Notes under the pieces: generated by a model | Told to the model about the DNA's origin: nothing | What the model saw: only the letters and a program-made list of their open reading frames with translations | The model's database searches: none | Assembly: GCA_965197475.1 (NCBI GenBank) | Contig: CBDANF010000003.1 | Location: 3,232,001 to 3,296,000 of the forward strand | Direction: 5' to 3' | DNA length: 64,000 nt | Source: Candidatus Poribacteria bacterium | GTDB lineage: Bacteria > Poribacteria > WGA-4E > WGA-3G | In this document: positions 40,860 to 64,000 of the stretch, piece after piece | Numbering within the stretch: position 1 is the first letter of the stretch | Layout: each line of letters starts with the position of its first letter | Translations under genes and position numbers: made by a program

Positions 40860-42049
40860 AAATTGTAGCCGTAGACCCTTTCTATTTTCGGATGCCAGAC
40901 ATCACATCGGCGGCTGATGGAACGCAAGATACGCTTTTAGTCCGAATTCGTACAGATGCGGGGATTGAAGGATGGGGAGAGTGTGATGCCTCTCCGTTGG
41001 TCAGCATTGCAGTCTATTGCTGCCCGATGTCACATGGAAATATCATCAACATTCACACTTCGCTAATTGGTGAAACACTTGATGCTCCTGACGATGTGCT
41101 TCGCTTGAGTGAAAAGGTGCTACGGAACGGGTTGGACATTCAACAGATACAACACGCTTATAGCGGAGCAGAAATCGCGCTATGGGATGTGGTCGGAAAG
41201 AAGTTAGAAAAACCTGTCTACTGCCTTCTTGCGGAGATGTCTGACACGTCTGACACAGCACATCCGAAATTGCCTTATGCGTCTGTCCTTTTCGGTGATA
41301 CGCCAGAAGTCACTTATCATATCGCAGCAGGTTTGCGCGAACGGGGATATCGCGCTGCAAAGTTTGGTTGGGGACCGATGGGACGATTTGGTGAGGAAAA
41401 CGACATTGCACTTGTGTGTGCTGCACGTGAAGGCATGGGAACTGATGCACAAATTATGATAGATGCTGGCGTTATTTGGGGAACTGATTACGAAACTGCT
41501 TTCAGTCGCGCGCAAGCATTTTCCCAATTTTCTCCCACCTGGTTGGAGGAACCGCTTGCTCCGGATGCGGTTGATGCGTACAGATCACTAACCGAGATGA
41601 ATCCATCTGTTTCCATCGCTGCAGGGGAGGGTTCAAACACCTATCGTATGGCTGAAGACCTCATCGTGCATGGTGGCATCCAGTTTGTGCAGATTGACAC
41701 GGGACGCATCGGTGGCATTTTGCCCTCTTTTCGGGTGTGCAGACTTGCAGAAAAGCATGGTGTCCAGTATGTTAATCACACCTTTAAAAGCCATCTCAGC
41801 CTTGCCGCTGCACTTCATGTTTTTGCCACAAACCCAGATTTCAATCTATTGGAATATCCTGCTGCGGGTTCAGAATTATCGCAACGTCTGGTAAAGCAAC
41901 CTTTTCAGATTGATTCAGATGGAATGGTGCAGGTGAAAGAGCTACCCGGGCTCGGTGTGCAAGTGGATACGGAAGCGATACGTCCGTATTTGGCACCGGT
42001 TCAGATTGGGGTCGGCGCGGATACGGTTTTTGAACAAGCACCACTTTAG
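40856..42049 (+). CDS. Mandelate racemase/muconate lactonizing enzyme family protein
   Basis: EIALWD, MIDAG, WLEEP, AAGE and PGLGV motifs. Confidence 0.92.
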   Translation: MKIVAVDPFYFRMPDITSAADGTQDTLLVRIRTDAGIEGWGECDASPLVSIAVYCCPMSHGNIINIHTSLIGETLDAPDDVLRLSEKVLRNGLDIQQIQHAYSGAEIALWDVVGKKLEKPVYCLLAEMSDTSDTAHPKLPYASVLFGDTPEVTYHIAAGLRERGYRAAKFGWGPMGRFGEENDIALVCAAREGMGTDAQIMIDAGVIWGTDYETAFSRAQAFSQFSPTWLEEPLAPDAVDAYRSLTEMNPSVSIAAGEGSNTYRMAEDLIVHGGIQFVQIDTGRIGGILPSFRVCRLAEKHGVQYVNHTFKSHLSLAAALHVFATNPDFNLLEYPAAGSELSQRLVKQPFQIDSDGMVQVKELPGLGVQVDTEAIRPYLAPVQIGVGADTVFEQAPL

Positions 42050-42056
42050 CGCAATA

Positions 42057-44232
42057 TTAGTCTTGTCCTTTCAAATTAGCCCAACTTGTAGTAAACTTAC
42101 CACTTGCGGACACTAATCCTCGCAACCGAACGGTTGCTAACTGCTTCCGAACACCTGCATGTGACACATCCTCTATTTGATAAAAATACACAGTATTCGA
42201 TTTGGCAGTGGTATCAGTCCATGTATACGCATTGCGTTCACCTGTAGTGCCAGCACCTTGTATCATTTGAGGGTTGACAACCTTGAACTCACCATCTTTT
42301 GTACGACTGCGATAGATGTAGAAGCCTGCATTGTCAATTTCCGATTCGGTTGTCCATTTCAGCACAACGCCTGCTTCGGTGTGTTGTGCGCGGAAATGGG
42401 ATAAGGTGACAGGCAGCGGATCTTCACCGCGCTTGAGATATATCTTGACATCTGGGTTCTTTCGCAAGAGTGCGAGGAGCGGTTCTCTATCCTTAATTGG
42501 ATTTCCTTGAAGGTATAATGCTTCAAGGTTAATTAGCTCTGTGAGTGGACTTACATCACTGATTTGATTGTTTTCAAGACGTAATCTCCACTTCAATTCT
42601 GTCAATCCTGCAAGCGGATTAATATCGCTAATTTGATTACCCTGGAGATCTAAAGATCGCAATTTTGTCAATCCTGCAAGCGGACTAATATCGCTAATTT
42701 GATTGCCACCGAGTTGTAAGTACCACAATTCTGTCAATCATGCAAGTGGACTGACATCATTAATTTGGTTATTATAAAGTCGTAAGTTTATCAAATTGGT
42801 TAGTCCAGAAAATGGCTTCAAATCCTGGATCGGTGTTTGAAGGGAACCCAGGAATACATCTGTCAACTGCGTAAATTCTGCGATGGAACTTATATCATCA
42901 ATAGGATTGTCTGATAGCTTTATACGGAGTAAATTGGGTAGATCTTTGAGAGCACTGAAATCGCTAATCTGATTACCTAATAGGTCCACATATACTAAAT
43001 TCGGTAACTGTGCCAAGATAGCAATATCACTAATCTGATTGTAATAAAGATCCAAGTACTTTAGATTTCGCGCATGTTCGAGCCCCGTAAGATTCGTAAT
43101 TTGTCGACTCCTAAAACTAGTAAGTTGTGTTAACCCAAGCATATCCAATTGTGTGATGGTGCTGTTAGGTGCTAATCCCAACGCTTCCCGCACCACGGTT
43201 GCTAAATTCACATCTGGTATTGTGACAATCTCGTCAGAAAACGTGTCGGTAACATTGATTGGAAATCCATATATTGTGAAATTTCCAACACCATCAATAA
43301 CGTGAAGACTTACAGATTCAGATTGCGTTGATAACTCAGTCGTCACAAACTCGACGGTCTGATTTTCACCTGTTAAATTTTTGCAGCCCAGCAATTTAAC
43401 ATCACCTGCTCCTTCATCTCCAGAAGTCGCTACTGTTAACAAGTGTGCAATCTGGAGTCCATCAGGATCACTTACGGTGAATTGGAGGCGAATACCATAG
43501 GGTGGAGAGGCAGTTGGTTGAAGCATCTGGATCGTCGTTTCACCACGGTCGGGTGGAGTTTGGCGAGTATTGAAATAGCGATGGGCATCCAACCATTCAG
43601 CACTACACAATGACAATTCGGTTTTGGATCCGTAAGACATGAGATAGACATTATTTCTGAAATCGTGCCTTAAGCCAAAGCAATGCCCAAGTTCATGATG
43701 AGGAACCATACCTTCAAAATCTGGACCTGAACAAACTCCATCTGCGGGTATGAGAGCGATTCCTCCCCAATCTCCTGTCACATTTGTCTTGACGCTTGCT
43801 GTCCCACAGTTGGCACCTATCTGTCTAGTGCTAACATCCACAACAATGAAGTAGATATTTTTAGTCAAGTCAAATTGTTGAGAAACTTCCTTATCAACCT
43901 TAGCCGTAGTGTCATCACTGTGGTAATACGCATCATCAAAGTCTCCATTTACGCGATGTACGACAGTGTTGCCGTCACTATCCGCTTCAAACACGAAAGT
44001 TTTTCTGCCGAATCCGTGGGCGTTCCATCTCATTGGCGAAAAACGTCTGCATGTTTTTTATCAACTTATCGAACTTTGCGTTTATATCTGGATCAGGTGT
44101 GCGATCGCGGGGAACAAAATAGATAAGTCGGACGATATTGTGAGGTTCATTCGCTTGTGCAAAACTGTTCGGTACAAAGGCAAGCATTACAAATGTTAGT
44201 AGTGTAAGTGTAAAACATAACATCGTTTTCAT
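42057..44232 (-). pseudogene. Secreted metzincin-like zinc protease with internalin-type LRRs and a C-terminal sorting-like domain; frameshift and nonsense
   Basis: Signal peptide at 44232; an extra C near 44018 breaks ...EMERHGFGRKTF; HELGHCFGLRH with a downstream Met; TGA at 42738-42740 where a sister repeat has GGA (SPLAGLT); ends LPVTLSHF...GKFTTSWANLK. Confidence 0.8.
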
Positions 44233-44261
44233 GAGTTGGTTCTCCTTTTTATTGATATTGG

Positions 44262-44314
44262 ATGGAAGATTGGAAAAATAGAAGCGTTTATCTCCGATTT
44301 TTCCAATCTTCCAT
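44262..44314. repeat. Intergenic 16-bp inverted repeat (possible terminator or REP-like element)
   Basis: ATGGAAGATTGGAAAA...TTTTCCAATCTTCCAT. Confidence 0.6.
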
Positions 44315-44325
44315 ATTTTTCAAAT

Positions 44326-47300
44326 TTACTTTCGTATCAACATCTTGCGCGTAGCAGAAAAATCACCTGCAGTGAGTGTATAAAAATAGATACCACTTGC
44401 AACAGATTCACCGAACTCATTTTTACCATCCCAATACGCTGCACGACTGCGACTTTGATAGGTGCCAGCGGGCAGGTGTCCTAACGCTAGCGTTCGAACT
44501 ATCTTACCATCTGCAGAATAGATAGAGATGCTAACATCGGCAGGTGCTGCCAACTGATACGGTATCCACGTCTCAGGATTGAACGGGTTGGGGAAGTTGG
44601 GAAGGAGTTCAGTTTGTATAGGCGTTGTTTGTGCTGACGGCGCACGGTTGTCAGCTTCTTCAGGAATTGTTATATCAAGGTCTAAACCTGGATGATCCGG
44701 AAGTGCCTCAATTGCTGCGACGAGTGTGCGGAGCGGTCCATAATCTGAAATAGAATTTCCAGCGAGCTTGAGCCTTCCCAGATTTGTCAAGTCTTCAAGT
44801 GGAGATATGTCGCTGATGCTGTTAGAGTGCAGATAGAGCGTTGTCAGTGAAGTCAACTCTTCAAGCGTTGATATATCGCTGATGCTGTTACCGCCCAGAT
44901 AGAGCGTTGTCAGTGAAGTTGACTCTTCAAGCGTTGATATATCGATGATGCTGTTACTGGTCAGACCGAGCGTTGTCAGTGAAGTCAAGTCTTCAAGTGC
45001 CGATATATTGCTGATACTGTTACCGGACAGATTGAGGTATGTGAGATTTGTCAAGTTTTCAAGCGTTGATATATCGCTGATGCCGTTATCCCGCAGATTG
45101 AGCCTTGTCAGATTTGTCAAGTTTTGAAGCGTTGATATATCGCTGAGGCCATTATCCCGCAGATTGAGCGATGTCAGTGAAATCAATCCATCAAAATCAC
45201 CTAATTGCAGTGTTGTGATCCCTTTATTGTCAAGACGAAGTGAAGTAATAGCTGCGAGGTGTGCCGCAGTCACATCATCTGCTGAATTCACACCTGCTGC
45301 TCGGACAATAGCATCACGCACCTGTTGTGTGCGTTCACTGAGCGGCAGAGGTGGAATTGTAATATCAAGCCATAAACTTCCATCAGCTGCCTTGATTACT
45401 GCAATGAGTCTACGGAGCGGTCCGTAATCTGATATCGTATTTCTACTGAGATCGAGCGTTGTCAGATTTGTCAAGTTTTGAAGCGTTGATATATCGCTGA
45501 TGCTGTTATGGCGCAGATCGAGGTATGTCAGATTTGTCAAATCTTCAAGGGCAGATATATCGCTGATGCTGTTATCGTCCAGATAGAGGTGTGTCAGATT
45601 TGTCAAGTTTTGAAGCGTTGATATATCGCTGATGCTGTTATCGTCCAGAGAGAGCCCTATCAGATTTGTCAAGTTTTGAAGCGTTGATATATCGCTGATG
45701 CTGTTATCGTCCAGACAGAGCCCTGTCAGATTTGTCAAGTTTTGAAGCGTTGATATATCGCTGATGCTGTTACCGTACAGATTGAGCGATGTCAGATTTG
45801 TCAAGTTTTGAAGCGTTGATATATCGCTGATGCTGTTATGGCGCAGACCGAGCCCTGTCAGATTTGTCAAATCTTCAAGGGCAGATATATCGCTGATGCT
45901 GTTATTCCACAGATAGAGGTATGTGAGATTTGTCAAGTTTTGAAGCGTTGATATATCGCTGATGCTGTTATGGCACAGATTGAGGTATGTCAGATTTGTC
46001 AAATCTTCAAGGGCAGATATATCGCTGATGCTGTTACCGTACAGAGAGAGCCCTGTCAGTGAAGTCAATCCATCAAAATCACCGGTTTGCAGTGTTGTGA
46101 TCCCTTTATTTATAAGATAAAGCGAAGTAATAGCTGCGAGGTGCGTTGCAGTCACATCATCTGCAGAACTAACCCCCGGCACTGCGGCAACAATAGCATC
46201 CTGCACCTGCCGTGTGCGTTCACTGATTGGTGTTGGAATTGTAATATCAAGGTATAAACGTCCACCAGCTTCCTTGATTACTGCAATGAGTCTGCGGAGC
46301 GGTCCGTAATCTGATATCGGATTTCCAGAGAGATTGAGCCATGTCAGATTTGTCAAGTTTTGAAGCGTTGATATATCGCTGATGCTGTTATCGTACAGAT
46401 AGAGGTATGTGAGATTTGTCAAGTTTTGAAGCGTTGATATATCGCTGAGGCTGTTAGCACCCAGATAGAGCGTTGTGAGATTTGTCAAGTTTTGAAGCGT
46501 TGATATATCGCTGAGGCTGTTAGCACCCAGATAGAGCGTTGTGAGATTTGTCAAGTCTTCAAGTGGTGATATATCGCTGAGGCTGTTACGGGACAGAGTG
46601 AGGTATGTGAGATTTGTCAAGTTTTGAAGCGTTGATATATCGCTGAGGCTGTTACGGGACAGAGTGAGGTATGTGAGATTTGTCAAGTTTTGAAGCGTTG
46701 ATATATCGCTGATGCTGTTACGGGACAGATTGAGCGTTGTCAGTGAAGTCAATCCATCAAAATCACCGGTTTGCAGTGTTGTGATCCCTTTATTGTCAAG
46801 ACGAAGCGAAGTAATAGCTGCGAGGTGTGTTGCTGTCACATCATCTGCAGAACTAACCCCTGGCACAGCTAGGACAATAGCATCACGCACCTGTTGTGTG
46901 CGGATTGGTGTTGGAATTGGAATATCAAGCCATAAACTTCCATTAGCTGCCACAATTGCTTCGATGAGTGTGCGGAGCGGTCCATAATCTGAAATAGAAT
47001 TTCCAGCGAGCTTGAGCGTTGTCAGATTTGTCAAGTCTTCAAGTGGAGATATATCGCTGATGCTGTTAGAGTGCAGATAGAGCTTTGTCAGATTTGTCAA
47101 CTCTTCAAGCGTTGATATATCGCTGATGCTGTTACCGCCCAGATAGAGCGTTGTCAGTGAAGTCAACTCTTCAAGCGTTGATATATCGATGATGCTGTTA
47201 CTGGTCAGACCGAGCGTTGTCAGATTTGTCAACTCTTCAAGCGCAGATATATTGCTGATGCTGTTACCGGACAGATTGAGGTATGTCAGATTTGTCAAGT

Positions 47301-48378
47301 TTTGAAGCGTTGATATATCGCTGATGCTGTTATCCCGCAGATTGAGGTATGTCAGATTTGTCAAGTTTTGAAGCGTTGATATATCGCTGATGCTGTTATC
47401 CCGCAGATTGAGGTATGTCAGATTTGTCAAGTTTTGAAGCGTTAATATATCGCTGAGGCTGTTATCCCGCAGATAGAGCGTTGTCAGTGAAGTCAATCCA
47501 TCAAAATCACCGGTTTGCAGTGTTGTGATCCCTTTATTGTCAAGACTAAGTGAAGTAATCGCTGCGAGGTGTGTTGCTGTCACATCATCTGCTGAATTCA
47601 CACCTGCTGCAGCAACAATAGCATCCTGCACCTGTTGTGTGCGTTCACTGAGCGGCAGAGATGGAATTGTAATATCAGGCCGTAAACTTCTACTAGCTGC
47701 CTCTATTGCTGCGATGAGTCTGCGGAGCGGTCCGTAATCTGATATCCCATTTCCAGCGAGCTTGAGCGTTGTCAGATTTGTCAAGTCTTCAAGTGGAGAT
47801 ATATCGCTGATGCTGTTACCGCCCAGATAGAGCTTTGTCAGTGAAGTCAAGTCTTCAAGCGGAGATATATCGCTGATGCTGTTACTGGTCAGACCGAGCG
47901 TTGTCAGTGAAGTCAACTCTTCAAGGGCAGATATATCGCTGATGCTGTTACTGGACAGAGTGAGGTATGTCAGATTTGTCAAGTTTTGAAGCGTTGATAT
48001 ATCGCTGATGCTGTTAGCGTTCAGAGTGAGGTATGTCAGATTTGTCAAGTTTTGAAGCGTTGATATATCGCTGAGGCCGTTAGAGGACAGACCGAGCGTT
48101 GTCAGTGAAGTCAATCCATCAAAATCACCTTCTTGCAGTGTTGTGATCCCTTTATTTCCAAGACGAAGCAAAGTAATCGCTGCGAGGTGTGTTTCGGTTA
48201 CATCGCTGGCAGTATTTATGCCCGGCACAGCAGCTACGATTTCATCGCGCACTTGTGGTGTGCGATCGGTAACAGGCGTGACAGCCGCATAACTCGTGCC
48301 ATATGTGCCGAGAATAATTAAAAGAGATACTAAAATAGATAAGACATACTTTTGATTTAGAAATTGTGTTTTCAACAT
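44326..48378 (-). CDS. Secreted multi-cassette LRR protein (5 capped cassettes of 22-aa internalin-like LRRs) with a FlgD-Ig/T9SS-like C-terminal domain
   Basis: Signal peptide; N-cap RTxQVRDAIV...HLAAIT; 6, 8, 7, 10 and 7 repeats; C-cap ISDYGPLRxL...LDITIP; NFPNPFNPETWIPY. Confidence 0.92.
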   Translation of the reverse strand: MLKTQFLNQKYVLSILVSLLIILGTYGTSYAAVTPVTDRTPQVRDEIVAAVPGINTASDVTETHLAAITLLRLGNKGITTLQEGDFDGLTSLTTLGLSSNGLSDISTLQNLTNLTYLTLNANSISDISTLQNLTNLTYLTLSSNSISDISALEELTSLTTLGLTSNSISDISPLEDLTSLTKLYLGGNSISDISPLEDLTNLTTLKLAGNGISDYGPLRRLIAAIEAASRSLRPDITIPSLPLSERTQQVQDAIVAAAGVNSADDVTATHLAAITSLSLDNKGITTLQTGDFDGLTSLTTLYLRDNSLSDILTLQNLTNLTYLNLRDNSISDISTLQNLTNLTYLNLRDNSISDISTLQNLTNLTYLNLSGNSISNISALEELTNLTTLGLTSNSIIDISTLEELTSLTTLYLGGNSISDISTLEELTNLTKLYLHSNSISDISPLEDLTNLTTLKLAGNSISDYGPLRTLIEAIVAANGSLWLDIPIPTPIRTQQVRDAIVLAVPGVSSADDVTATHLAAITSLRLDNKGITTLQTGDFDGLTSLTTLNLSRNSISDISTLQNLTNLTYLTLSRNSLSDISTLQNLTNLTYLTLSRNSLSDISPLEDLTNLTTLYLGANSLSDISTLQNLTNLTTLYLGANSLSDISTLQNLTNLTYLYLYDNSISDISTLQNLTNLTWLNLSGNPISDYGPLRRLIAVIKEAGGRLYLDITIPTPISERTRQVQDAIVAAVPGVSSADDVTATHLAAITSLYLINKGITTLQTGDFDGLTSLTGLSLYGNSISDISALEDLTNLTYLNLCHNSISDISTLQNLTNLTYLYLWNNSISDISALEDLTNLTGLGLRHNSISDISTLQNLTNLTSLNLYGNSISDISTLQNLTNLTGLCLDDNSISDISTLQNLTNLIGLSLDDNSISDISTLQNLTNLTHLYLDDNSISDISALEDLTNLTYLDLRHNSISDISTLQNLTNLTTLDLSRNTISDYGPLRRLIAVIKAADGSLWLDITIPPLPLSERTQQVRDAIVRAAGVNSADDVTAAHLAAITSLRLDNKGITTLQLGDFDGLISLTSLNLRDNGLSDISTLQNLTNLTRLNLRDNGISDISTLENLTNLTYLNLSGNSISNISALEDLTSLTTLGLTSNSIIDISTLEESTSLTTLYLGGNSISDISTLEELTSLTTLYLHSNSISDISPLEDLTNLGRLKLAGNSISDYGPLRTLVAAIEALPDHPGLDLDITIPEEADNRAPSAQTTPIQTELLPNFPNPFNPETWIPYQLAAPADVSISIYSADGKIVRTLALGHLPAGTYQSRSRAAYWDGKNEFGESVASGIYFYTLTAGDFSATRKMLIRK

Positions 48379-48432
48379 AAACTCCTTTTTTGTTAGTTTC
48401 AGACGGTAGATGCGGTTTGCTAACCGAGATTC

Positions 48433-48580
48433 TGTCTGAACCAGGATTCACAGGATTATAGGATTTTCAGGATTACAGAAGATTACCCATCTAATGCTAA
48501 CCCTAATAAGAGACAACTTGCAATCAAAGAAACCCAATAATCCTGGAAATCTGGAAATCCTGAAAATCCTGGTTCAGACA
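48433..48580. repeat. 148-bp inverted-repeat element with internal AGGATT short repeats
   Basis: Perfect termini TGTCTGAACCAGGATT...AATCCTGGTTCAGACA. Confidence 0.75.
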
Positions 48581-48585
48581 AGGCA

Positions 48586-51500
48586 TTACTTCAAAATAGC
48601 CATTTTGCGCAGGAAGGACACACTGTCCGCCTGCAGTTGATAGAAATAGACCCCTGCCGCAACCTTCTCACCGAATGTGTTTTTACCATCCCAATGGATA
48701 GCACGGCTACGACTCAGATAAACACCCGCAGGTTTCTGGCCTAACTTCAACTGCCGCACCACAACGCCCCGCATATCGTAGATTGTCAACGTGACCTCTG
48801 CTGGCTTGGACAGTTGATACGGTATCCACGTCTCAGGGTTGAACGGGTTGGGGAAGTTGGGAAGGAGTTCAGTTTGTATAGGCGTTGCTGGTGCTGACAG
48901 GGCACGGTTGTCAGCTTCTTCAGGAATTGTTATATCAAGGTATAAACTTCTACCAGCTGCCTCAATTACTGCGATGAGTCTGCGGAGCGGTCCGTAATCT
49001 GATATCGGATTTCCCCGGAGCCAGAGCCTTGTCAGATTTGTCAAGTTTTGAAGTGGAGATATATCGCTGAGGCTGTTATCGCCCAGATGGAGCCTTGTCA
49101 GTGAAGTCAATCCATCAAAATCACCGGTTTGCAGTGTTGTGATCCCTTTATTGTCAAGACTAAGCAAAGTAATAGCTGCGAGGTGTCTTGCTGTCACATC
49201 ATCTGCAGAACTAACCCCCGGCACTGCAGCAACAATAGCATCACGCACCTGCCGTGTGCGTTCACTGAGCGGCAGAAGTGGAATTGTAATATCAAGGTTT
49301 AAACGTCCACCAGCTGCCTCGATTGCTGCGATGAGTCTGCGGAGCGGTTCGTAATCTGATATCGGATTCCCCCAGAGCCAGAGCCTTGTCAGATTTGTCA
49401 AGTTTTGAAGCGGAGATATATCGCTGATGCTGTTATTGGTCAGATAGAGCCATGTCAGATTTGTCAAGTTTTGAAGCGTTGATATATCGCTGATGCGGTT
49501 AGAGCGCAGATCGAGCGTTGTCAGATTTGTCAGATTTGTCAAGTTTTGAAGCGTTGATATATCGCTGAGGCTGTTATCGCCCAGCTTGAGCCTTGTCAGT
49601 GAAGTCAATCCATCAAAATCACCGGTTTGCAGTGTTGTGATCCCTTTATCGTTAAGACTAAGTGAAGTAATAGCTGCGAGGTGTGTTCCTGTCACATCAT
49701 CTGCAGAACTAACCCCCGGCACTGCGGCAACAATAGCATCACGCACCTGTTGTGTGCGTTCACTGAGCGGCGGATCAATTGGTGTTGGAATTGTAATATC
49801 AAGTCTTAAACTTCCATCAGCTGCCTCGATTGCTGCGATGAGTCTGCGGAGCGGTCCGTAATCTGATATCGTATTTCCAGCGAGCCTGAGCGATGTCAGA
49901 TTTGTCAAATGTTCAAGCGCAGATATATCGCTGATGCTGTTAGAGCGCAGATAGAGGTATCTGAGATTTGTCAAATGTTCAAGCGCAGATATATCGCTGA
50001 TGCTGTTATTGTTTAGATAGAGGTATGTCAGTGAAGTCAATCCATCAAAATCACCGGTTTGCAGTGTTGTGATCCCTTTATTTATAAGATTAAGCAAAGT
50101 AATAGCAGCGAGATGTGTTGCTGTCACATCATCTGCTGAACTAACCCCCGGCACTGCAGCAACAATAGCATCACGCACCTGCCGTGTGCGTTCACTGAGC
50201 GGCGGATCAATTGGTGTTGGAATTGTAATATCAAGGTTTAAACGTCCACCAGCTGCCTCGATTGCTGCGATGAGTCTGCGGAGCGGTCCGTAATCTGATA
50301 TCGTATTTCCAGCGAGCGTGAGCCATCTCAGATTTGTCAAGTCTTCAAGTGGAGATATATCGCTGATGCTGGTACCGGACAGTTCGAGCGTTGTCAGATT
50401 TGTCAAATGTTGAAGCGTTGATATATCGCTGATGCTGGTATTGTACAGATAGAGCAATGTCAGATTTGTCAAATGTTCAAGCGCAGATATATCGCTGATG
50501 CTGGTATTATTGCCCAGATTGAGCGATGTGAGACTTGTCAAGTTTTCAAGCGCAGATATATCGCTGAGGCTGTTATCCCGCAGAGTGAGATATGTCAGAT
50601 TTGTCAAGTTTTCAAGCGCAGATATATCGATGAGGCTGTTATTCCGCAGATCGAGGTCTGTGAGTGCGGTGAGACCATTAAAATCACCTGCTTGCAGTGA
50701 TGAAATGCCCGATCCCCTTATGTCAAGTTCTGTAATAGCAGCGAGGTGTGCTGCAGTCACATCATCTGCAGAACTAACCCCCGGCACTGCAGCAACAATA
50801 GCATCACGCACCTGCTGTGTGCGTTCACTGAGCGGCGGATCTGGTGTATCGGGTACGTCGGTAACATTAATCGTGACAGTAATGCTATCTGTCCCCCCAT
50901 TCCCATCAGAAACAGAGACCGTGACCGAGTAAGATGTCTTTGTTTCATAATTGAGGGATGCTTTGGTTTGCAGCTGCCCGGAACTACTAACAATACCAAA
51001 AGATGCCGCATCCGTGCCACCGAGTGTATAGGTGAGCGTAGTACCACTATCCGGATCAGTCGCAGCAACCGCACTGCCGATGTTATTACCGGAGGCTGTA
51101 TTTTCTGCGATAGACCGTGATGTGCTGCTGCTATCACTGAACACGGGTGCCTCGTTGACATTCGTGACATTGATCGTGATAGTAATAGTATCCGTAAGGG
51201 TTCCATCTGATACCGTTATAACTACGGTATAGGATGTCTTTGTTTCATAGTCAAGTGCTGCCTTGGTTAGCAACCTTCTGGTCGTGCTATCAAAGGTAAA
51301 CGATGCTGCATCCGCGCCACCCAGACTATAGGTCAACGAGTCACCATCAGGCTCACTCACATCCAAAGCATTACCGATGCTTGTATTTGCAGCGGTATTC
51401 TCAGGAATGGAGCGCGTATCGCTGCTATGTTTAAACGCGGGTGCCTCGTTGACATTCGTGACATTGATTGTGACGCTAATGCTATCACTACCGCCGTTCC

Positions 51501-54500
51501 CATCAGAGACAGAGATTGTCACAGAATAGGAGGACCTGCTTTCATAATTGAGAGATGCGCTTGTGCGGAGCTGCCCGTTTGTGCTATTGATGCCAAACGA
51601 TGCCGCATCCGTGCCACCGAGCGTCCAAGTCAACGTATCGTCATCCGCATCTGTCGCAGCAACGGCAGTACCGATGTTATTACCGGCAGCGGTGTTCTCC
51701 GCAACGGAACGTGATGTGCTTGTGCCATCAGTGAGGGTCGGTGCATCGTTTGCGTCTGTAACGTTGATTGTAACGGTGATGCTATCACTCCCACCATTCC
51801 CATCGGAGACAGAGATTGTCACAGAATAGGAGGACCTGCTTTCATAATTGAGAGCTGCGCTTGTGCGCAACTGCCCGTTTGTGCTGTTAATGTCAAACGA
51901 GGACGCATCTGTGCCACCGAGACTATATTCTAAGGTGTCGTTATCTGGATCGGTTGCAGAGACGGCACTGCCGATGTTTATGCCGGCTGCCGTGTTTTCT
52001 GCGATGGAGCGCGTGGTGCTGATGCCGTCTGTGAAGGTCGGGGCGGTGTTACCACCCTCAGGTGGAATTGTAATATCAAGTCTTAAACTTCCACCAGCTA
52101 CCTCGATTGCTGCGATGAGTCTGCGGAGCGGTCCGTAATCTGAAATCGTATTTCCACGGAGATAGAGCCTTGTCAGATTTGTCAAATCTTCAAGCGCAGA
52201 TATATCGCTGATGCTGTTAGAGCGCAGATGGAGCCATGTCAGATTTGTCAAGTTTTGAAGCGGAGATATATCGCTGATGCTGGTATTGTTTAGATAGAGG
52301 TGTCTGAGATTTGTCAAATCTTCAAGCGGAGATATATCGCTAATGCGGTTATTGTTTAGATAGAGGTATGTCAGTGAAGTCAATCCATCAAAATCACCGG
52401 TTTGCAGTGTTGTGATCCCTTTATTTATAAGATTAAGCAAAGTAATAGCTGCGAGGTGTGTTCCTGTCACATCATCTGCAGAACTAACCCTCGGCACTGC
52501 AGCAACAATAGCATCACGCACCTGCCGTGTGCGTTCACTGAGCGGCGGATCAATTGGTATTGGAATTGTAATATCAAGGTTTAAACGTCCACCAGCTGCC
52601 TCGATTGCGGCGATGAGTCTGCGGAGCGGTCCGTAATCTGATATCGTATTTCCACTGAGATTGAGCCTTGTCAGATTTGTCAAGCTTTCAAGCGCAGATA
52701 TATTGCTGAGGCTGGTATCGGACAAAGAGAGGTATCTCAGATTTGTCAAGTTTTCAAGCACAGATATATCGCTGAGGCTGGTATTATTGCCCAGATTGAG
52801 TGCTCTCAGATTTGTCAAATGTTCAAGCACAGATATATCGCTGATGCTGGTATCGTCCAGATAGAGCGTTGTCAGATTTGTCAAGTTTTGAAGCGGAGAT
52901 ATATCGCTGATGCTGGTATCCTGCAGATAGAGCGATGTGAGATTTGTCAAGTTTTCAAGCGGAGATATATCGCTGAGGCTGGTATTATTGCCCAGATTGA
53001 GGTCTGTGAGACTTGTCAAGTTGTGAAGCGCAGATATATCGCTGAGGCTGTTATCCCGCAGAGTGAGATATGTCAGATTTGTCAAGTTTTGAAGCGCAGA
53101 TATATCGCTGAGGCTGTTATTCCGCAGATCGAGGTCTGTGAGTGCGGTGAGACCATTAAAATCACCTGCTTGCAGTGATGAAATGCCCGATTCCCTTATG
53201 TCAAGTTCTTTAATAGCAGCGAGGTGTGCTGCAGTCACATCATCTGCAGAACTAACCCCCGGCACTGCAGCAACAATAGCATCGCGCACCTGCCGTGTGC
53301 GTTCACTGAGCGGCGGATCAATTGGAATTGTAATATCAAGGTCTAAACTTCTATCAGCTGCCTCGATTGCTGCGATGAGTCTGAGGAGCGGTCCGTAATC
53401 TGAAATCGTATTTCCACGGAGATTGAGCCTTCCCAGATTTGTCAAGCTTTCAAGCGCAGATATATCGCTGATGCTGTTATCGGACAGATCGAGCGTTGTC
53501 AGATTTGTCAAGTTTTGAAGCGCAGATATATCGATGATGCTGTTATCGGGCAGATGGAGCAATGTCAGATTTGTCAAGTTTTGAAGCGGAGATATATCGA
53601 TGATGCTGTTATAGGACAGAAGGAGCCATGTGAGATTTGTCAAGTTTTGAAGCGGAGATATATCGATGATGCTGTTATCGATCAGATAGAGGTATCTGAG
53701 ATTTGTCAAGTTTTGAAGCGGAGATATATCGCTGAGGGGGTTATAGGACAGATAGAGCGTTGTGAGATTTGTCAAGTTTTGAAGCGGAGATATATCGCCG
53801 ATGCTGTTATCGGTCAGATCGAGCAATGTGAGATTTGTCAAGTTTTGAAGCGGAGATATATCGCTGAGGGGGTTATAGGACAGATCGAGCAATGTGAGAT
53901 TTGTCAAGTTTTGAAGCGTTGATATATCGCTGATGCTGTTATCGCCCAGAGAGAGCCTTGTCAGTGAAGTCAATCCATCAAAATCACCGGTTTGCAGTGT
54001 TGTGATCCCTTTATTGTCAAGACTAAGTGAAGTAATAGCTGCGAGGTGTGTTGCAGTCACATCATCTGCAGAACTAACCCCCGACACTGCGGCAACAATA
54101 GCATCGCGCACCTGCCGTGTGCGTTCACTGAGCGGCGGATCAATTGGTGGTGGAATTGTAATATCAAGGTGTAAACGTCCACCAGCTGCCTCGATTGCTG
54201 CGATGAGTCTACGGAGCGGTCCGTAATCTGATATCGAATTTTTAGCGAGCGTGAGGTATCTCAGATTTGTCAAGTTTTCAAGTGGAGATATATCGCTGAG
54301 GCTGTTATCGTCCAGACCGAGCGTTGTCAGATTTGTCAAGTTTTGAAGCGTTGATATATCGCTGATGCTGTTATCGGTCAGACCGAGCGTTGTCAGATTT
54401 GTCAAGTCTTCAAGGGCAGATATATCGCTGAGGTTGTTATCGGGCAGACTGAGCGTTGTCAGATTTGTCAAGTCTTCAAGGGCAGATATATCGCTGAGGC

Positions 54501-62500: not shown

Positions 62501-64000
62501 TCGTCAAAAATACCCGATGGCAAGGAATTCAAACCGTTGTCCCACAAACTGAGTTCTGTCAGTGAAGTGAGCTCGTCAAAGACATCTGATGGCAATGAAG
62601 TCAACAACGGATTTTTTTCTATCTCAAGTTTTGTCAGAGCGGTAAGATCATCGAAATCACTGGCTTTCAGGCTTACTGCCCCTGCATTGATTATTTCAAG
62701 TTCGGTAATAGCGGCAATATGTTCCGCAGTCACATCATTCGGAGAATTTACGCCCGGGATCGCAGCAACGATAGCATCTTGCACCTGTGGTGTACGTCCG
62801 GAGAGCAAATTAAGATTGTAATCTATGTACATATCAGGGTTGTTTTCAAGCAGCCTGAGGATTGGTGCCTGACTCACAATCGGGTTCCCAGCGATATGCA
62901 AATGTGTAAGTGATGTCACATTTTCAACGGCAGACATATCACCGATTTGATTGTTTTGCAGGTTAAGTTTTTTCAATACGGTATTATTGTCAAAAACACC
63001 CGATGGCAAAGAACTCAACCGGTTAGACGATAGGTTAAGGTTTTCCAGTGCGGTGAGCTCGTCAAAAACACCCGATGGCAAGGAAGTCAACCGGTTTCTC
63101 CATAGGTTGAGGTCTTTTAGTGCGGTGAGCTCGTCAAAAATACCCGACGGCAGAGAACTCAATTGGTTAATCGCAAGGTCAAGTTTTGTGAGTTCGGTGA
63201 GCCCATCAAAAACATCAGATGGCAAAGAAGTCAACTTGTTCTCAGACAGGTCAAGTTCTTTCAGTGCGGTGTTATTGTCAAAAACATCCGATGACAAGGA
63301 ACTTAACCAGTTAGACTCAAAGTTAATTTTTTCCAGTACGGTGAGCTCGTCAAAAATACCTGACAGCAAGGAACTTAACCGGTTTTGATGCAGGTGAAGG
63401 TTTTTCAGTGCGGTGAGCTCGTCAAAAATACCTGATGGCAAAGACCATAAACCGTTGCCGGGCAGCCAGAGTGTATCCAGTGCGGTGAGCTCGTCAAAAA
63501 CACCTGATGGCAAGGAACTCAAGCCGTTGTCCCACAGACTGAGTTCTGTCAGTGCGGTGAGTTCGTCAAAAATATCAGACGGCAAAGGCCCTAACGACTG
63601 ATTATGTTCTATCTCAAGTTTTGTCAGTCCGGTGAGCCCGTTGAAATCACCGGCATTCAGTCTAGTGAGCCCTACGCTATTTAGTTCAAGTTCGGTAATA
63701 GCGGCAAGGTGCGCCGCGGTAACATCAGCAGCGGAAGTTACACCCGACACTGCGGCAACAATAGCGTCGCGCACCTGCGGCGTGCGATTACTGAGGGGAC
63801 CCAGGTCATCGCCGCTCTCTGTGACGTTGATCCTCACAGTGATAGTATCGCTTCCGCCTTCCCCATCGGAGACAGTGATTGTCACCGTGTAGGTGCTCTT
63901 CGTGTCATAGTCAAGTTGATCCTTGGTTTGCAGCTGCCCTGTTGTGCTGACAATACCAAACGATGCAGCATCCGTGCCACTGAGCGTCCAAGTCAACGTG
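59530..64000 (-). CDS. Partial (5' end beyond the window) LRR-cadherin-Ig-dockerin protein with a FlgD-Ig/T9SS-like C-terminus
   Basis: 24-aa repeats LSSLPSGVFDELTAL..L.L..N; cadherin repeats; dockerin-like DVNEDGSVDATD...DVNWDNTVDADD; NYPNPFNPETWIPY. Confidence 0.9.
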   Translation of the reverse strand, partial: TLTWTLSGTDAASFGIVSTTGQLQTKDQLDYDTKSTYTVTITVSDGEGGSDTITVRINVTESGDDLGPLSNRTPQVRDAIVAAVSGVTSAADVTAAHLAAITELELNSVGLTRLNAGDFNGLTGLTKLEIEHNQSLGPLPSDIFDELTALTELSLWDNGLSSLPSGVFDELTALDTLWLPGNGLWSLPSGIFDELTALKNLHLHQNRLSSLLSGIFDELTVLEKINFESNWLSSLSSDVFDNNTALKELDLSENKLTSLPSDVFDGLTELTKLDLAINQLSSLPSGIFDELTALKDLNLWRNRLTSLPSGVFDELTALENLNLSSNRLSSLPSGVFDNNTVLKKLNLQNNQIGDMSAVENVTSLTHLHIAGNPIVSQAPILRLLENNPDMYIDYNLNLLSGRTPQVQDAIVAAIPGVNSPNDVTAEHIAAITELEIINAGAVSLKASDFDDLTALTKLEIEKNPLLTSLPSDVFDELTSLTELSLWDNGLNSLPSGIFDELTALEDLSLYENDLTSLPSDVFDGLTALKILDLQNNKIDDMSAVENVTSLTSLHISGNPISDYGPLRRLKQNNPNVNIDITIPPEESANNAPVFTDGESTTRSVAENTDAGENIGDPVSATDSDTSDTLTWTLSGTDAESFDIVDTTGQLQTSAALDYDTKNTYTVTITVSDGNGGTDTITVTINVTEVDDNIAPLSTDNRPGQNKQTDQDVDQVTNNAPVFTEGDSTTRAIDENTAADTNIGSAVTATDADNDPLEYTLGGYNAASFDIDSETGHLKTKAWLDYERKNSYTVTITVSDGSLTDSITVTINVNNVNDAPAFAIVSIVAAGSESPPVTRSVAENTAAGENIGTPVAAVDQENDTLMYTLSGDDASSFSIDSETGQLKTKAALDYETKTSYSVTITVSDGSLTDTIAVTINVTDVDDNRAPVFLLSNIIRSIEIDGDTAAGTNIGDPVSATDADNDTLTYTLGGTDAASFDIDSTTGQLQTTAAFISDTRSDYSVIVTATDGNGGSASVDVTVTATRRAPQVTNNAPVFQYGSSITLSINKGEEVGTSIRATDEDDDILTYSLGGTDASLFSLDEDHEYYLKSNAALDYDGKTSYSVTITVSDGNGGSDTTTVTITDPAPEVEIWTLIYREEPDWVLKLDTETGIVRASFSGLFVTSLFKHNSISFTRPPGVQFDNSFQVSVVFQEEVSGFEQSELTLTDNTAGATISGWRSQETWFGYVVDADIDVTMSGSVTFNVAAGAATDSAGQPNPVAESKTVTVTIELTDYPPWDVNEDGSVDATDSALVTAALGQTGEDIVNSRTDVNWDNTVDADDVTLVTYHIEDEEVAPSIIRAFSLLDKKTLEKLDPATLQGYLDILRTESDGSPRYLRAIAIVESVLAAIRPNKTQLLANYPNPFNPETWIPYHLAKASDVQITIYDARGAVVRQLDLGHQREGYYTHRSRAAHWEGKNDVGERVATGIYFYQLQADNVSFLRKMVILK

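Follow-up and report, generated by a model that had tools for sequence, protein, structure and literature searches.

In the LRRs of plant resistance genes, the established view, set out in PMC3113787, is that positive selection acts on the x residues of xxLxLxx only and that gene conversion operates alongside it. The same account describes hypervariable x residues in plant NBS-LRR genes alongside duplication, deletion and gene conversion among paralogues. The poribacterial genes described here also carry hypervariable x residues at xxLxLxx; however, what is copied here is a repeat unit inside a bacterial gene, not a whole paralogous gene as in plants, and the copies are far more alike, so that the synonymous bases of the founder are still visible. 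In bacteria, a screen for repeats with localised hypervariation led to the surface LRR loci of Flavobacterium psychrophilum (Altae-Tran et al. 2020, PMC10392669). As portrayed in that report, these loci resemble the present one in several respects: the LRR units are about 22 residues long and have a few hypervariable positions, all on one face; the proteins begin with a secretion signal and end in a T9SS sorting signal; several such genes are arranged next to one another; and the loci differ between close relatives. Localised hypervariable positions in otherwise near-identical LRR units, the feature for which that screen was designed, were found here too. Unlike the F. psychrophilum proteins as reported, those encoded here are giant multi-module proteins mixed with cadherin-like repeats and belong to another phylum, and intergenic gene fragments of the F. 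psychrophilum type were not seen, since no framework match lay outside long ORFs genome-wide.

Listeria internalins and human SDS22 share with the present repeats the 22-residue LRR class, LxxLxLxxNxIxDIxxLxxL, and InlA binds its ligand via its concave face. The proteins studied here differ from internalins in having no inter-repeat Ig-like domain and no LPXTG or GW anchor, carrying a T9SS-type C-terminal sorting domain instead. TAL effectors of Xanthomonas have two variable residues in each 34-residue unit. They are alike in consisting of near-identical DNA repeats with variation limited to few specificity codons (PMC10392669); they differ in fold and in having DNA as ligand, and four residues vary per 22-residue unit here. 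A further likeness is to diversity-generating retroelements (DGRs), in which variable codons change at bases 1 and 2 while the third base is fixed and stops are absent. In Poribacteria themselves, Kamke et al. (2014, PMC3909097) reported eukaryote-like repeat proteins from single-cell genomes, among them LRR (PF12799), cadherin and WD40 proteins that carry signal peptides as well as TIGR04183 domains; the part of that report dealing with these proteins gives domain counts, without the codon-level LRR variation considered here.

Locus organization and predicted fold

The window, that is, the whole 64,000-nt stretch of DNA analysed, holds three large genes in a row, with the following features.

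44326..48378, minus strand: gene A, 1350 amino acids (ORF list and translation), with a signal-peptide-like N-terminal segment, five LRR modules and a C-terminal sorting domain
44335..44595, minus strand: C-terminal Por_Secre_tail domain of gene A, a T9SS type A sorting signal matching TIGR04183
45352..46209, minus strand: LRR module 4 of gene A, residues 724-1009, in which the codon pattern was noticed
45466..46059, minus strand: nine 66-nt units with the listed x1/x2/x3/x4 codons, residues 774-971
48286..48378, minus strand: probable Sec signal peptide, gene A residues 1-31, read by eye from the translation
48586..59475, minus strand: gene B, 3629 amino acids as listed
59530..64000, minus strand, continuing beyond the window: gene C, third in this row of giant genes for putative surface proteins

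Genes A and B are separated by 207 nt. In each LRR module of gene A, 5-10 units of 22 residues stand between an N-cap and a C-cap; TRF found a 66-nt period in the repeats. The Pfam scores of gene A for LRR_4 (501 bits), LRR_8 (390 bits) and LRR_14 (117 bits) all exceed the cut-offs, and a FlgD_ig match scored 34.1 bits. Module 4 comprises nine regular units and one cap unit; its framework is nearly uniform and its x codons are very diverse. Gene B encodes cadherin-like repeats, one module of 24-residue LRRs, ten modules of the 22-residue LRR family and a T9SS sorting domain, and gene C has cadherin-like repeats and a T9SS sorting domain as well, its LRR modules being of a different, 24-residue subtype.

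The 22-residue period and the pattern LxxLxLxxNxIxDIxxLxxL were evident in the translations and in the column table. An AlphaFold2 model of module 4 (pLDDT 91.4) placed beta-strands over x1-x3 every 22 residues, and the best solved matches found with Foldseek were Listeria InlF and InlA and human SDS22 (4fmz, 1o6v, 6mky; E-values 1e-25 to 1e-18), along with a Roco LRR. By this predicted structure, the modules are internalin/SDS22-type LRR solenoids in which the four x codons, the x of LxxLxLxxN, lie on the concave beta-face. Scores for the Listeria class 1 internalin families (InlA, InlH) stayed far below the cut-offs, at 160.5 bits against 1600 for NF033189 and 138 against 1050 for NF033188.

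Residues 1-31 of gene A show, by eye, a hydrophobic core followed by S-Y-A. The TIGR04183 match of gene A scored 37.1 bits against a cut-off of 23 (contig position C3:3276335-3276595), and T9SS sorting domains occur in 51 ORFs of the genome, those of genes A, B and C among them. For the PorU sortase model NF033707, whose cut-off is 420 bits, the best match scored 279 bits and was seen in three large ORFs. Kamke et al. (2014, PMC3909097) reported that Por structural genes were not found in the poribacterial single-cell genomes. Judged by their domains, the proteins may be displayed at the surface, and the products of genes A and B would be secreted, probably cell-surface, adhesin-like proteins of Candidatus Poribacteria, a sponge symbiont. 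In the modelled solenoid the concave face could bind a variable ligand, for example a host, particle or phage molecule.

Codon pattern and substitution rates

A motif scan reproduced the count of 87 units in an earlier note on this DNA: gene A has 38 and gene B has 49 that belong to the 22/23-residue class, leaving aside five units of 24 residues near the beginning of gene B. The regular set consists of the 69 22-residue units, each of 66 nt, from the adjacent genes A and B. All nine codon quartets listed in the earlier note were found exactly as written on the minus strand at 45466-46059, and its description of the third bases (NNT at x2 and x4, mostly NNC at x3, NNG or NAC at x1) agrees with the base spectrum read directly over both sets. 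Among the regular units the third base was T at x2 in 67 of 69 and at x4 in 69 of 69, C at x3 in 56 (G in 11, T in 2) and G at x1 in 45 (C in 22, T in 2). With caps and 23-residue units included, the corresponding counts were T in 76/87 at x2 and 73/87 at x4, C in 60/87 at x3, and G in 60/87 or C in 24/87 at x1. Entropy at bases 1 and 2 of the four x codons was 1.23-1.94 bits, and 0-0.5 bits in most framework columns. Within module 4, x bases 1-2 had a pairwise diversity of 0.62, compared with 0.048 for bases 1-2 and 0.096 for third bases of the framework.

Since distinct-codon counts per position gave too weak a lower bound, substitution was measured by parsimony and by Nei-Gojobori counts on 68 nearest-neighbour unit pairs. 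By parsimony, x bases 1-2 had undergone 16.75 changes per site; for third bases the figure was 3.75 in x codons and 2.33 in the framework. By the Nei-Gojobori method, dS was 0.048 in x codons versus 0.054 in the framework and dN was 0.344 versus 0.038, giving omega values of 7.2 and 0.7. The third bases of the x codons behave as ordinary synonymous sites, and the nonsynonymous rate at the four x codons is about 4-7 times the synonymous rate, the size of omega depending on the synonymous yardstick chosen. Selection is the probable cause of this excess, although rates alone cannot separate it from mutation aimed at bases 1 and 2. Transitions and transversions stood at 64:105 at x bases 1-2 versus 43:106 in the framework, and 4 of the 11 closest non-identical unit pairs differed in the framework only.

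The x-blocks of module 4 had a mean nearest distance of 1.89 of 8 bases, compared with 2.02 +/- 0.26 after column shuffling, and 37% of 2000 shuffles were as low. Their nearest-neighbour structure is no greater than that of column-shuffled blocks, which counts against the explanation favored below. In addition, 11 units have one identical 54-nt framework while differing on average at 5.1 of 8 x bases, so that in this subset either the framework has been homogenised around x-blocks of greater age, or the rate excess must locally be far more than 7.

A simple star radiation of the framework was considered and rejected, as differences from the commonest framework are bimodal and the 11 units with zero framework differences compare with about one expected from a Poisson distribution with the family mean.

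Inheritance of the variable codons

Across 21 arrays from this and other genomes, third-base diversity in x codons followed third-base diversity in the framework (Spearman 0.85), whereas diversity at x bases 1-2 was 0.44-0.69 throughout; this fits a third-base fixity that decays with array age. Other lineages have fixed other third bases: lineage L002 has T at x3 in 27/32 and C at x4 in 27/32, and lineage L014 has C at all four x positions.

Within gene A, the duplicated modules A240-489 and A1010-1239 differ at 5 of 56 x bases 1-2 and at 12 of 126 framework third bases. In the closest species (91% nucleotide identity), an orthologous module of its gene B counterpart has 52 of 64 x bases 1-2 unchanged and 12 changed (0.188), and 7 of 144 framework third bases changed; five 18-nt x-blocks are common to both species. 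The x codons are inherited through segmental duplications and across species, as is directly apparent from these comparisons. Third-position divergence between the species was 132/926 = 0.143 in the non-repeat part of gene B and 0.04-0.06, roughly one third as much, in its orthologous LRR modules. The orthologous x divergence is only modestly above the non-repeat value, which makes the size of omega a matter of the synonymous yardstick.

LRR modules of the same kind are present in all 40 genomes of the genus. An orthologue of module 4 was found in none of the 40, the best match having 80% amino-acid identity from the framework alone. In the closest species, the site beside a conserved MR_MLE-type gene holds WD40 proteins and no LRR genes, and its gene B orthologue lies elsewhere in the genome, away from that site.

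Logan contigs from a mixed metagenome, about 100-750 nt long, supplied many pieces 90-95% alike, none of which spans a module. Three runs of one study, the source of these contigs, contain 45-55% of the sampled words. Some contigs differ from the locus, for example at 45506-45513, and in such short pieces strain and paralogue origins are not separable.

Sources of the variation

The pattern is likely to have arisen by recent repeat amplification, homogenisation and diversifying selection, with no special mutator involved. A 66-nt unit would have been amplified recently from one founder with G (or C), T, C and T as the third bases of x1 to x4; the copies would stay alike through gene conversion and unequal recombination, and ordinary point mutations would accumulate after amplification. 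Amino-acid changes at the four concave-face codons would be favored and fixed some 4-7 times faster than synonymous changes, while those elsewhere would be removed. Most x residues (Y, D, N, H, S, G, T, R) are reachable through bases 1 and 2 alone, and synonymous sites would hardly have had time to change since amplification, so that founder third bases would persist and produce the NNG/NNT/NNC/NNT look of a library. Strong diversifying selection with homogenisation was one of two readings offered in the earlier note, and it fits an omega of about 7 versus about 0.7 at equal synonymous rates as well as the decay of third-base fixity with array age, the third bases of other lineages and the inherited x codons. 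The other, an unrecognised site-targeted mutagenesis or a DGR acting in trans, is not supported: neither reverse transcriptase nor template was found in the genome, and the codons at x2, x3 and x4 form single-step networks (codon lists, by eye).

A DGR in trans, whose reverse transcriptase would copy an adenine-bearing template and write mutagenised copies into the repeats, is suggested by the fact that three of the four codons look like NNT or NNC and by the lack of stop codons, both reminiscent of variable codons derived from AAY. However, PF00078 (RVT_1) had 0 matches at E<=0.01 in the genome of this bacterium (assembly 92.7% complete, 3 contigs), whereas control genomes matched, so the absence of reverse transcriptase previously noted for the window extends to the genome. 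An Avd-like accessory protein is common in DGRs, though not universal; its model PF05635 also had 0 matches in this genome. Genome matches sharing at least 42 of the 54 framework letters included no template copy: of the 78, 69 belonged to coding arrays of this locus and the other 9 to those of a single paralogous gene, all within intact long ORFs, and in no match were more than 6 of the 8 variable bases A. Nor was mutagenesis adenine-specific, since the framework adenines of ACA, AAC and ATA did not vary, being A in 69/69 units; bases 1 and 3 of ACA and ATA are among them, confirming the fixed wobble A reported before. The two variable bases are also unequally randomised, base 2 keeping A in 49/69 (x2) and 43/69 (x4) and base 1 in only 17/69 and 14/69. 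Variable residues occupy 87 LRR units instead of one C-terminal C-type-lectin or Ig variable region, and x codons are retained from one species to another. Of the 40 genomes in the genus, 18 encode a reverse transcriptase and 22 have none, yet 40/40 have such LRR modules. As far as a 92.7% complete assembly allows, the DGR reading is refuted, and the probability left to it is negligible. Chance or codon-usage bias is just as implausible as the origin of the pattern. The genome mildly favors T-ending two-fold codons (0.55-0.68; TAT 0.63, GAT 0.68 and AAT 0.55 of their pairs), but x3 and x1 carry the less favored C-ending and G-ending codons, ACG, TCG, GGG and AGG being minority codons in the genome, and one amino acid is spelled according to position. 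Tyr is TAT at x2 (27/27) and x4 (5/5) and TAC at x1 (19/21) and x3 (6/6); Asp is GAT at x2 and x4 (35/35) and GAC at x1 and x3 (8/8). The pattern would lie far beyond chance if the units were independent; as they are copies of one founder repeat, copying explains it.

Recent copying with selection on ligand-facing codons only would thus account for the library look, and a tempting false lead is removed, since an NNG/NNT/NNC/NNT pattern is possible without diversity-generating machinery. Two questions make a reusable check: whether variable codons and framework have equal synonymous rates, and whether third bases are less fixed in older arrays. The concave face is predicted to be the fastest-evolving part of these poribacterial LRR modules and would therefore be the place to seek a host, particle or phage ligand in an unculturable sponge symbiont.

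Two further readings dispense with a reverse transcriptase. The x positions might be unconstrained and neutral, with selection or homogenisation suppressing change everywhere else, synonymous sites included, and the orthologous divergence of 0.188 at x bases 1-2 against 0.143 at non-repeat third positions is indeed near neutral. This is quite unlikely, as dN is 7 times dS within the same codons and genealogy, and homogenisation would affect all three codon bases alike. Moreover, the x residues are strongly filtered, with almost no hydrophobics (T at base 2 in 6/348 codons) or K, E and Q (9/348 together) and with Y, G, S, D, T, R and N making up 296/348; they are constrained, yet outrun synonymous sites. 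Slightly less improbable, though still unlikely, is an RT-free source of another kind, either exchange of 18-nt x-block cassettes by short-tract gene conversion or an unknown base-precise mutator. As in VLR or pilin systems, blocks would be exchanged among the many near-identical units that this genome and its co-resident relatives contain. Exchange only moves existing blocks, so point substitution and selection would still be required, and no silent cassette store or gene fragments were seen among the 78 framework matches, every one of them in an intact long ORF. An RT-free source is also opposed by the equality of synonymous rates inside x codons and in the framework, by a transition/transversion ratio that is not distinctive, and by the close unit pairs that differ in framework only. 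On the same low expectation, the 66-nt units might serve as a recombination substrate for 18-nt binding-face cassettes, both within the genome and between co-resident Poribacteria species; if so, exchange would give the symbiont population a repertoire of surface binders that is combinatorial, like that of VLRs, and is renewed more quickly than by point mutation. Recombination-driven LRR loci are on record in F. psychrophilum, as presented in PMC10392669, and the x-blocks of module 4 are indistinguishable from random draws. Hints of cassette exchange are also seen in the 11 units that combine an identical 54-nt framework with unrelated x-blocks, in the low third-position divergence of orthologous LRR modules relative to the non-repeat part, which would fit interspecies exchange, and in exact frameworks common to two species whose other genes are about 9% apart.

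Repeat architecture and codon pattern

Translation and the ORF listing placed the variable codons within a set of giant reading frames:
44326-48378, minus strand: gene A, a 1350-residue ORF containing the variable codons of interest (module 4)
48586-59475, minus strand: gene B, a 3629-residue ORF adjoining gene A at higher window coordinates
beyond gene B in window coordinates, extending past the window edge: a third giant ORF

Tandem Repeats Finder detected 66-nt periods throughout genes A and B. In gene A, a hydrophobic N-terminus is followed by five leucine-rich repeat (LRR) modules, each running from a conserved N-cap through 5-10 units of 22 residues to a C-cap. At its C-terminus, gene A carries a domain that matched TIGR04183 (T9SS type A sorting domain) at 37.1 bits against a cut-off of 23, and the gene scored 501 and 390 bits with Pfam LRR_4 and LRR_8. 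Gene B encodes cadherin-like repeats and ten further modules of the same unit. Its listed start is a TTG 38 codons upstream of an ATG (59361-59475, minus strand); a signal-peptide-like segment, MKTLIGNKKYVVSIFVTILIVFGA, follows the inner ATG, which is probably the true start, and the stretch between the two codons is conserved in the orthologue from the closest species, G003. The spacer between the genes (48379-48585) contains CAGGATT-like words arranged as a long, imperfect inverted repeat. Certain 20-mers of the spacer recur across the genome, with up to 18 occurrences, and most of the spacer is present twice; in short assembled mixed-community contigs, summed depth is very high here and loose ends are numerous. 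The spacer may represent a small repeated element, or else a terminator or leader in shared use. A gene at 42057-44033 (minus strand) combines an M12B/reprolysin-like N-terminal part with LRR units of another subtype and is listed as two directly adjoining ORFs (431 and 226 aa) because of one in-frame stop within an LRR unit; loss of function as a pseudogene, an error of sequencing or a genuine split may explain the stop.

Each unit has four variable, putatively ligand-facing codons (x1-x4), with eight variable bases at codon bases 1-2, and a framework of 54 nt; the stretch that holds x1-x4 forms an 18-nt x-block. An earlier note had listed nine codon quartets, counted 87 repeats and described a mostly fixed third base. 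The quartets matched the sequence exactly, and a motif scan returned 87 units, 38 in gene A and 49 in gene B, with five 24-residue units at the start of gene B excluded. The third bases were likewise confirmed in a column table of the 69/87 regular 22-residue units, where bases 1-2 had entropies of 1.23-1.94 bits.

Third bases of the variable codons (codon; 69 regular units; all 87 units, including caps and 23-residue units)
x1; G 45/69, C 22/69; G 60/87, C 24/87
x2; T 67/69; T 76/87
x3; C 56/69; C 60/87
x4; T 69/69; T 73/87

Spelling depends on position: at x1 and x3 Tyr is written TAC, at x2 and x4 TAT, the same split holds for Asp, Asn and His, and the x1 codons for Thr (ACG), Ser (TCG), Gly (GGG) and Arg (AGG) are all minority codons of the genome. 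Codon usage is thereby ruled out as the cause, as is, with the third-base counts, chance among independent units. No description of this pattern was found in the portions available of the literature on diversity-generating retroelements (DGRs) with LRRs or on poribacterial LRRs.

Rates and inheritance of the variable codons

Among the 69 units, the invariance of the x2 and x4 third bases is matched by many third bases of the framework. When changes were reconstructed by parsimony on a tree of these units, bases 1-2 had 16.75 changes per site in x codons and 2.14 in the framework, and third bases had 3.75 and 2.33, respectively. A minimum spanning tree supplied 68 edges for Nei-Gojobori counts, which gave equal dS (0.048 in x codons, 0.054 in framework), while dN was 0.344 versus 0.038 and omega (dN/dS) 7.2 versus 0.7. 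Across 21 arrays (this locus, a paralogue and 19 loci from other genomes), x third-base diversity increased with framework third-base diversity (Spearman 0.85), and diversity at x bases 1-2 was 0.44-0.69 in every array. Which base is fixed depends on the lineage: x3=T and x4=C in the loci L002, L005, L008 and L011, and C at all x third bases in the G+C-rich L014. What keeps the third base fixed is descent from a founder, at sites that behave as ordinary synonymous ones. Third bases dictated by a mechanism would neither lose their fixity as arrays age nor differ between lineages.

Among 348 x codons, T occupied base 2 in 6 and Lys, Glu and Gln together accounted for 9, while Tyr, Gly, Ser, Asp, Thr, Arg and Asn made up 296. 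The ratio of transitions to transversions was 64:105 for x bases 1-2, compared with 43:106 for framework. The variation is filtered and its mutational spectrum unremarkable. Judged by eye, codons at x2, x3 and x4 form single-step-connected networks and those at x1 form two clusters, around ACG and TAC, read as descending from two old founder codons.

Variable codons persist by descent. Between two duplicated modules of gene A, the differences amount to 5/56 at x bases 1-2, 12/126 at third bases of the framework and 10/74 at those of the caps; a duplicated pair of stretches in gene B has an x excess (18/72 at x bases 1-2 versus 9/162 framework third bases). Among the 11 closest non-identical unit pairs, four differ in framework only, five in x only and two in both. 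G003 shows 91% nucleotide identity in the neighbouring MR_MLE-type gene and has the gene B orthologue at another place in its genome, with the non-repeat part 90.7% identical (132/926 third positions differing). The orthologue's units have the same G/T/C/T third bases (T in 30/30 at both x2 and x4), and three of their 54-nt frameworks and five of their 18-nt x-blocks are identical to ones in the window. One gap-free orthologous module differs at 12/64 x bases 1-2, 4/32 x third bases and 7/144 framework third bases; four fifths of the variable bases thus survived a speciation, and the excess of x bases 1-2 over synonymous sites is about four-fold.

Candidate processes: targeted mutagenesis, selection and recombination

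The earlier note had weighed targeted mutagenesis, by an unrecognised mechanism acting in trans, against selection with homogenisation, and had proposed searching the genome for a reverse transcriptase and template. In the three contigs of this genome (5.7 Mb, 92.7% complete, 7% contamination), neither the reverse transcriptase family RVT_1 nor the Avd-like family PF05635 had a match. A whole-genome template scan (at least 42/54 framework letters in common) found 78 copies, all within coding arrays, 69 at this locus and 9 in one paralogue; none had A at more than 6/8 variable bases. Framework adenines did not vary among the units, as the note had observed. Some reverse transcriptase was present in 18 of 40 genus genomes, and gene A/B-type LRR modules in all 40. 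This assembly thus gives no sign of a DGR behind the variable codons, and the targeted-mutagenesis reading was not supported; selection with homogenisation was, by the contrast in omega at equal dS and by the inherited x codons.

Some points fit this reading less well. In module 4 of gene A (45352-46209, minus strand), the nearest-neighbour distance of x-blocks (1.89) is no smaller than after column shuffling (2.02 +/- 0.26), while over the whole family the distance is 1.16, with 0/2000 shuffles as low. One exact framework is common to eleven units whose x bases differ at 5.1/8; a Poisson model expects about one such unit, so that either the framework was homogenised around older x-blocks or the local excess is much higher. 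Between gene B residues 2052-3086 and L075/L076 of the closest species (G003:C1:759352-769590), third-position divergence is 0.04-0.06 in LRR modules versus 0.143 in the non-repeat part, which suggests that the LRR part alone may undergo exchange or homogenisation. These three observations fit recombination of units, perhaps also inter-species. A mutator is not needed to account for them, although the rates by themselves leave room for one.

The nine paralogue copies lie outside the window in a 2079-residue surface protein (G000:C3:2553648-2559884) that combines a single module of this family with Ig-like or cadherin-like repeats. Compared with genes A and B, the framework of that module has diverged further and its x third bases vary more, which fits an older array.

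Probable surface display, known counterparts and distribution

Module 4 was predicted to form a solenoid (pLDDT 91.4) with one strand per 22 residues, covering x1, x2 and x3, with x4 directly after. The best solved structural matches were Listeria InlF and InlA, Chlorobium Roco LRR and human SDS22; internalin family models scored far under their cut-offs, placing the module in the same LRR class as internalins and in a different family. T9SS type A sorting domains exceeded the cut-off in 51 ORFs of this genome, where the best matches to the PorU sortase reached 279 bits against a cut-off of 420. From these features we infer that both proteins are binders, secreted and held at the surface, where the concave face would contact a partner that varies. 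In the text available from Kamke et al. 2014 (PMC3909097), LRR, cadherin and WD40 proteins with a T9SS-type sorting domain are reported in Poribacteria and a role of repeat proteins in host interaction is discussed.

The three closest known systems are plant resistance genes, described in the portion consulted of PMC3113787 as having Ka/Ks >1 only at the x residues of xxLxLxx, plus gene conversion; cell-surface LRR loci of Flavobacterium psychrophilum, with T9SS signals and localised hypervariation in the corresponding excerpt of PMC10392669; and TAL effector repeats. The arrays of genes A and B are a very clean case of this kind, in another phylum.

By related-record titles, the family is overwhelmingly found in Candidatus Poribacteria. 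These bacteria are sponge symbionts. The G003 region syntenic to window 42000-48400 (L067, 2770-11716) encodes WD40-repeat and other repeat proteins beside the MR_MLE-type gene, with a C-terminal sorting domain nearly identical to that of gene A; it appears that the passenger part was exchanged and the sorting domain retained. Close relatives of the module that extend to the N-cap are present at L014, L016, L028, L037, L039, L051 and L054, in genomes labelled Acidimicrobiales, Latescibacterota, Gemmatimonadota, Nitrospirales and Longimicrobiales. The distribution resembles horizontal spread between bacteria that live together, with the array founded anew in each receiving genome; in L014, nearly every x third base of the 58 units is C.
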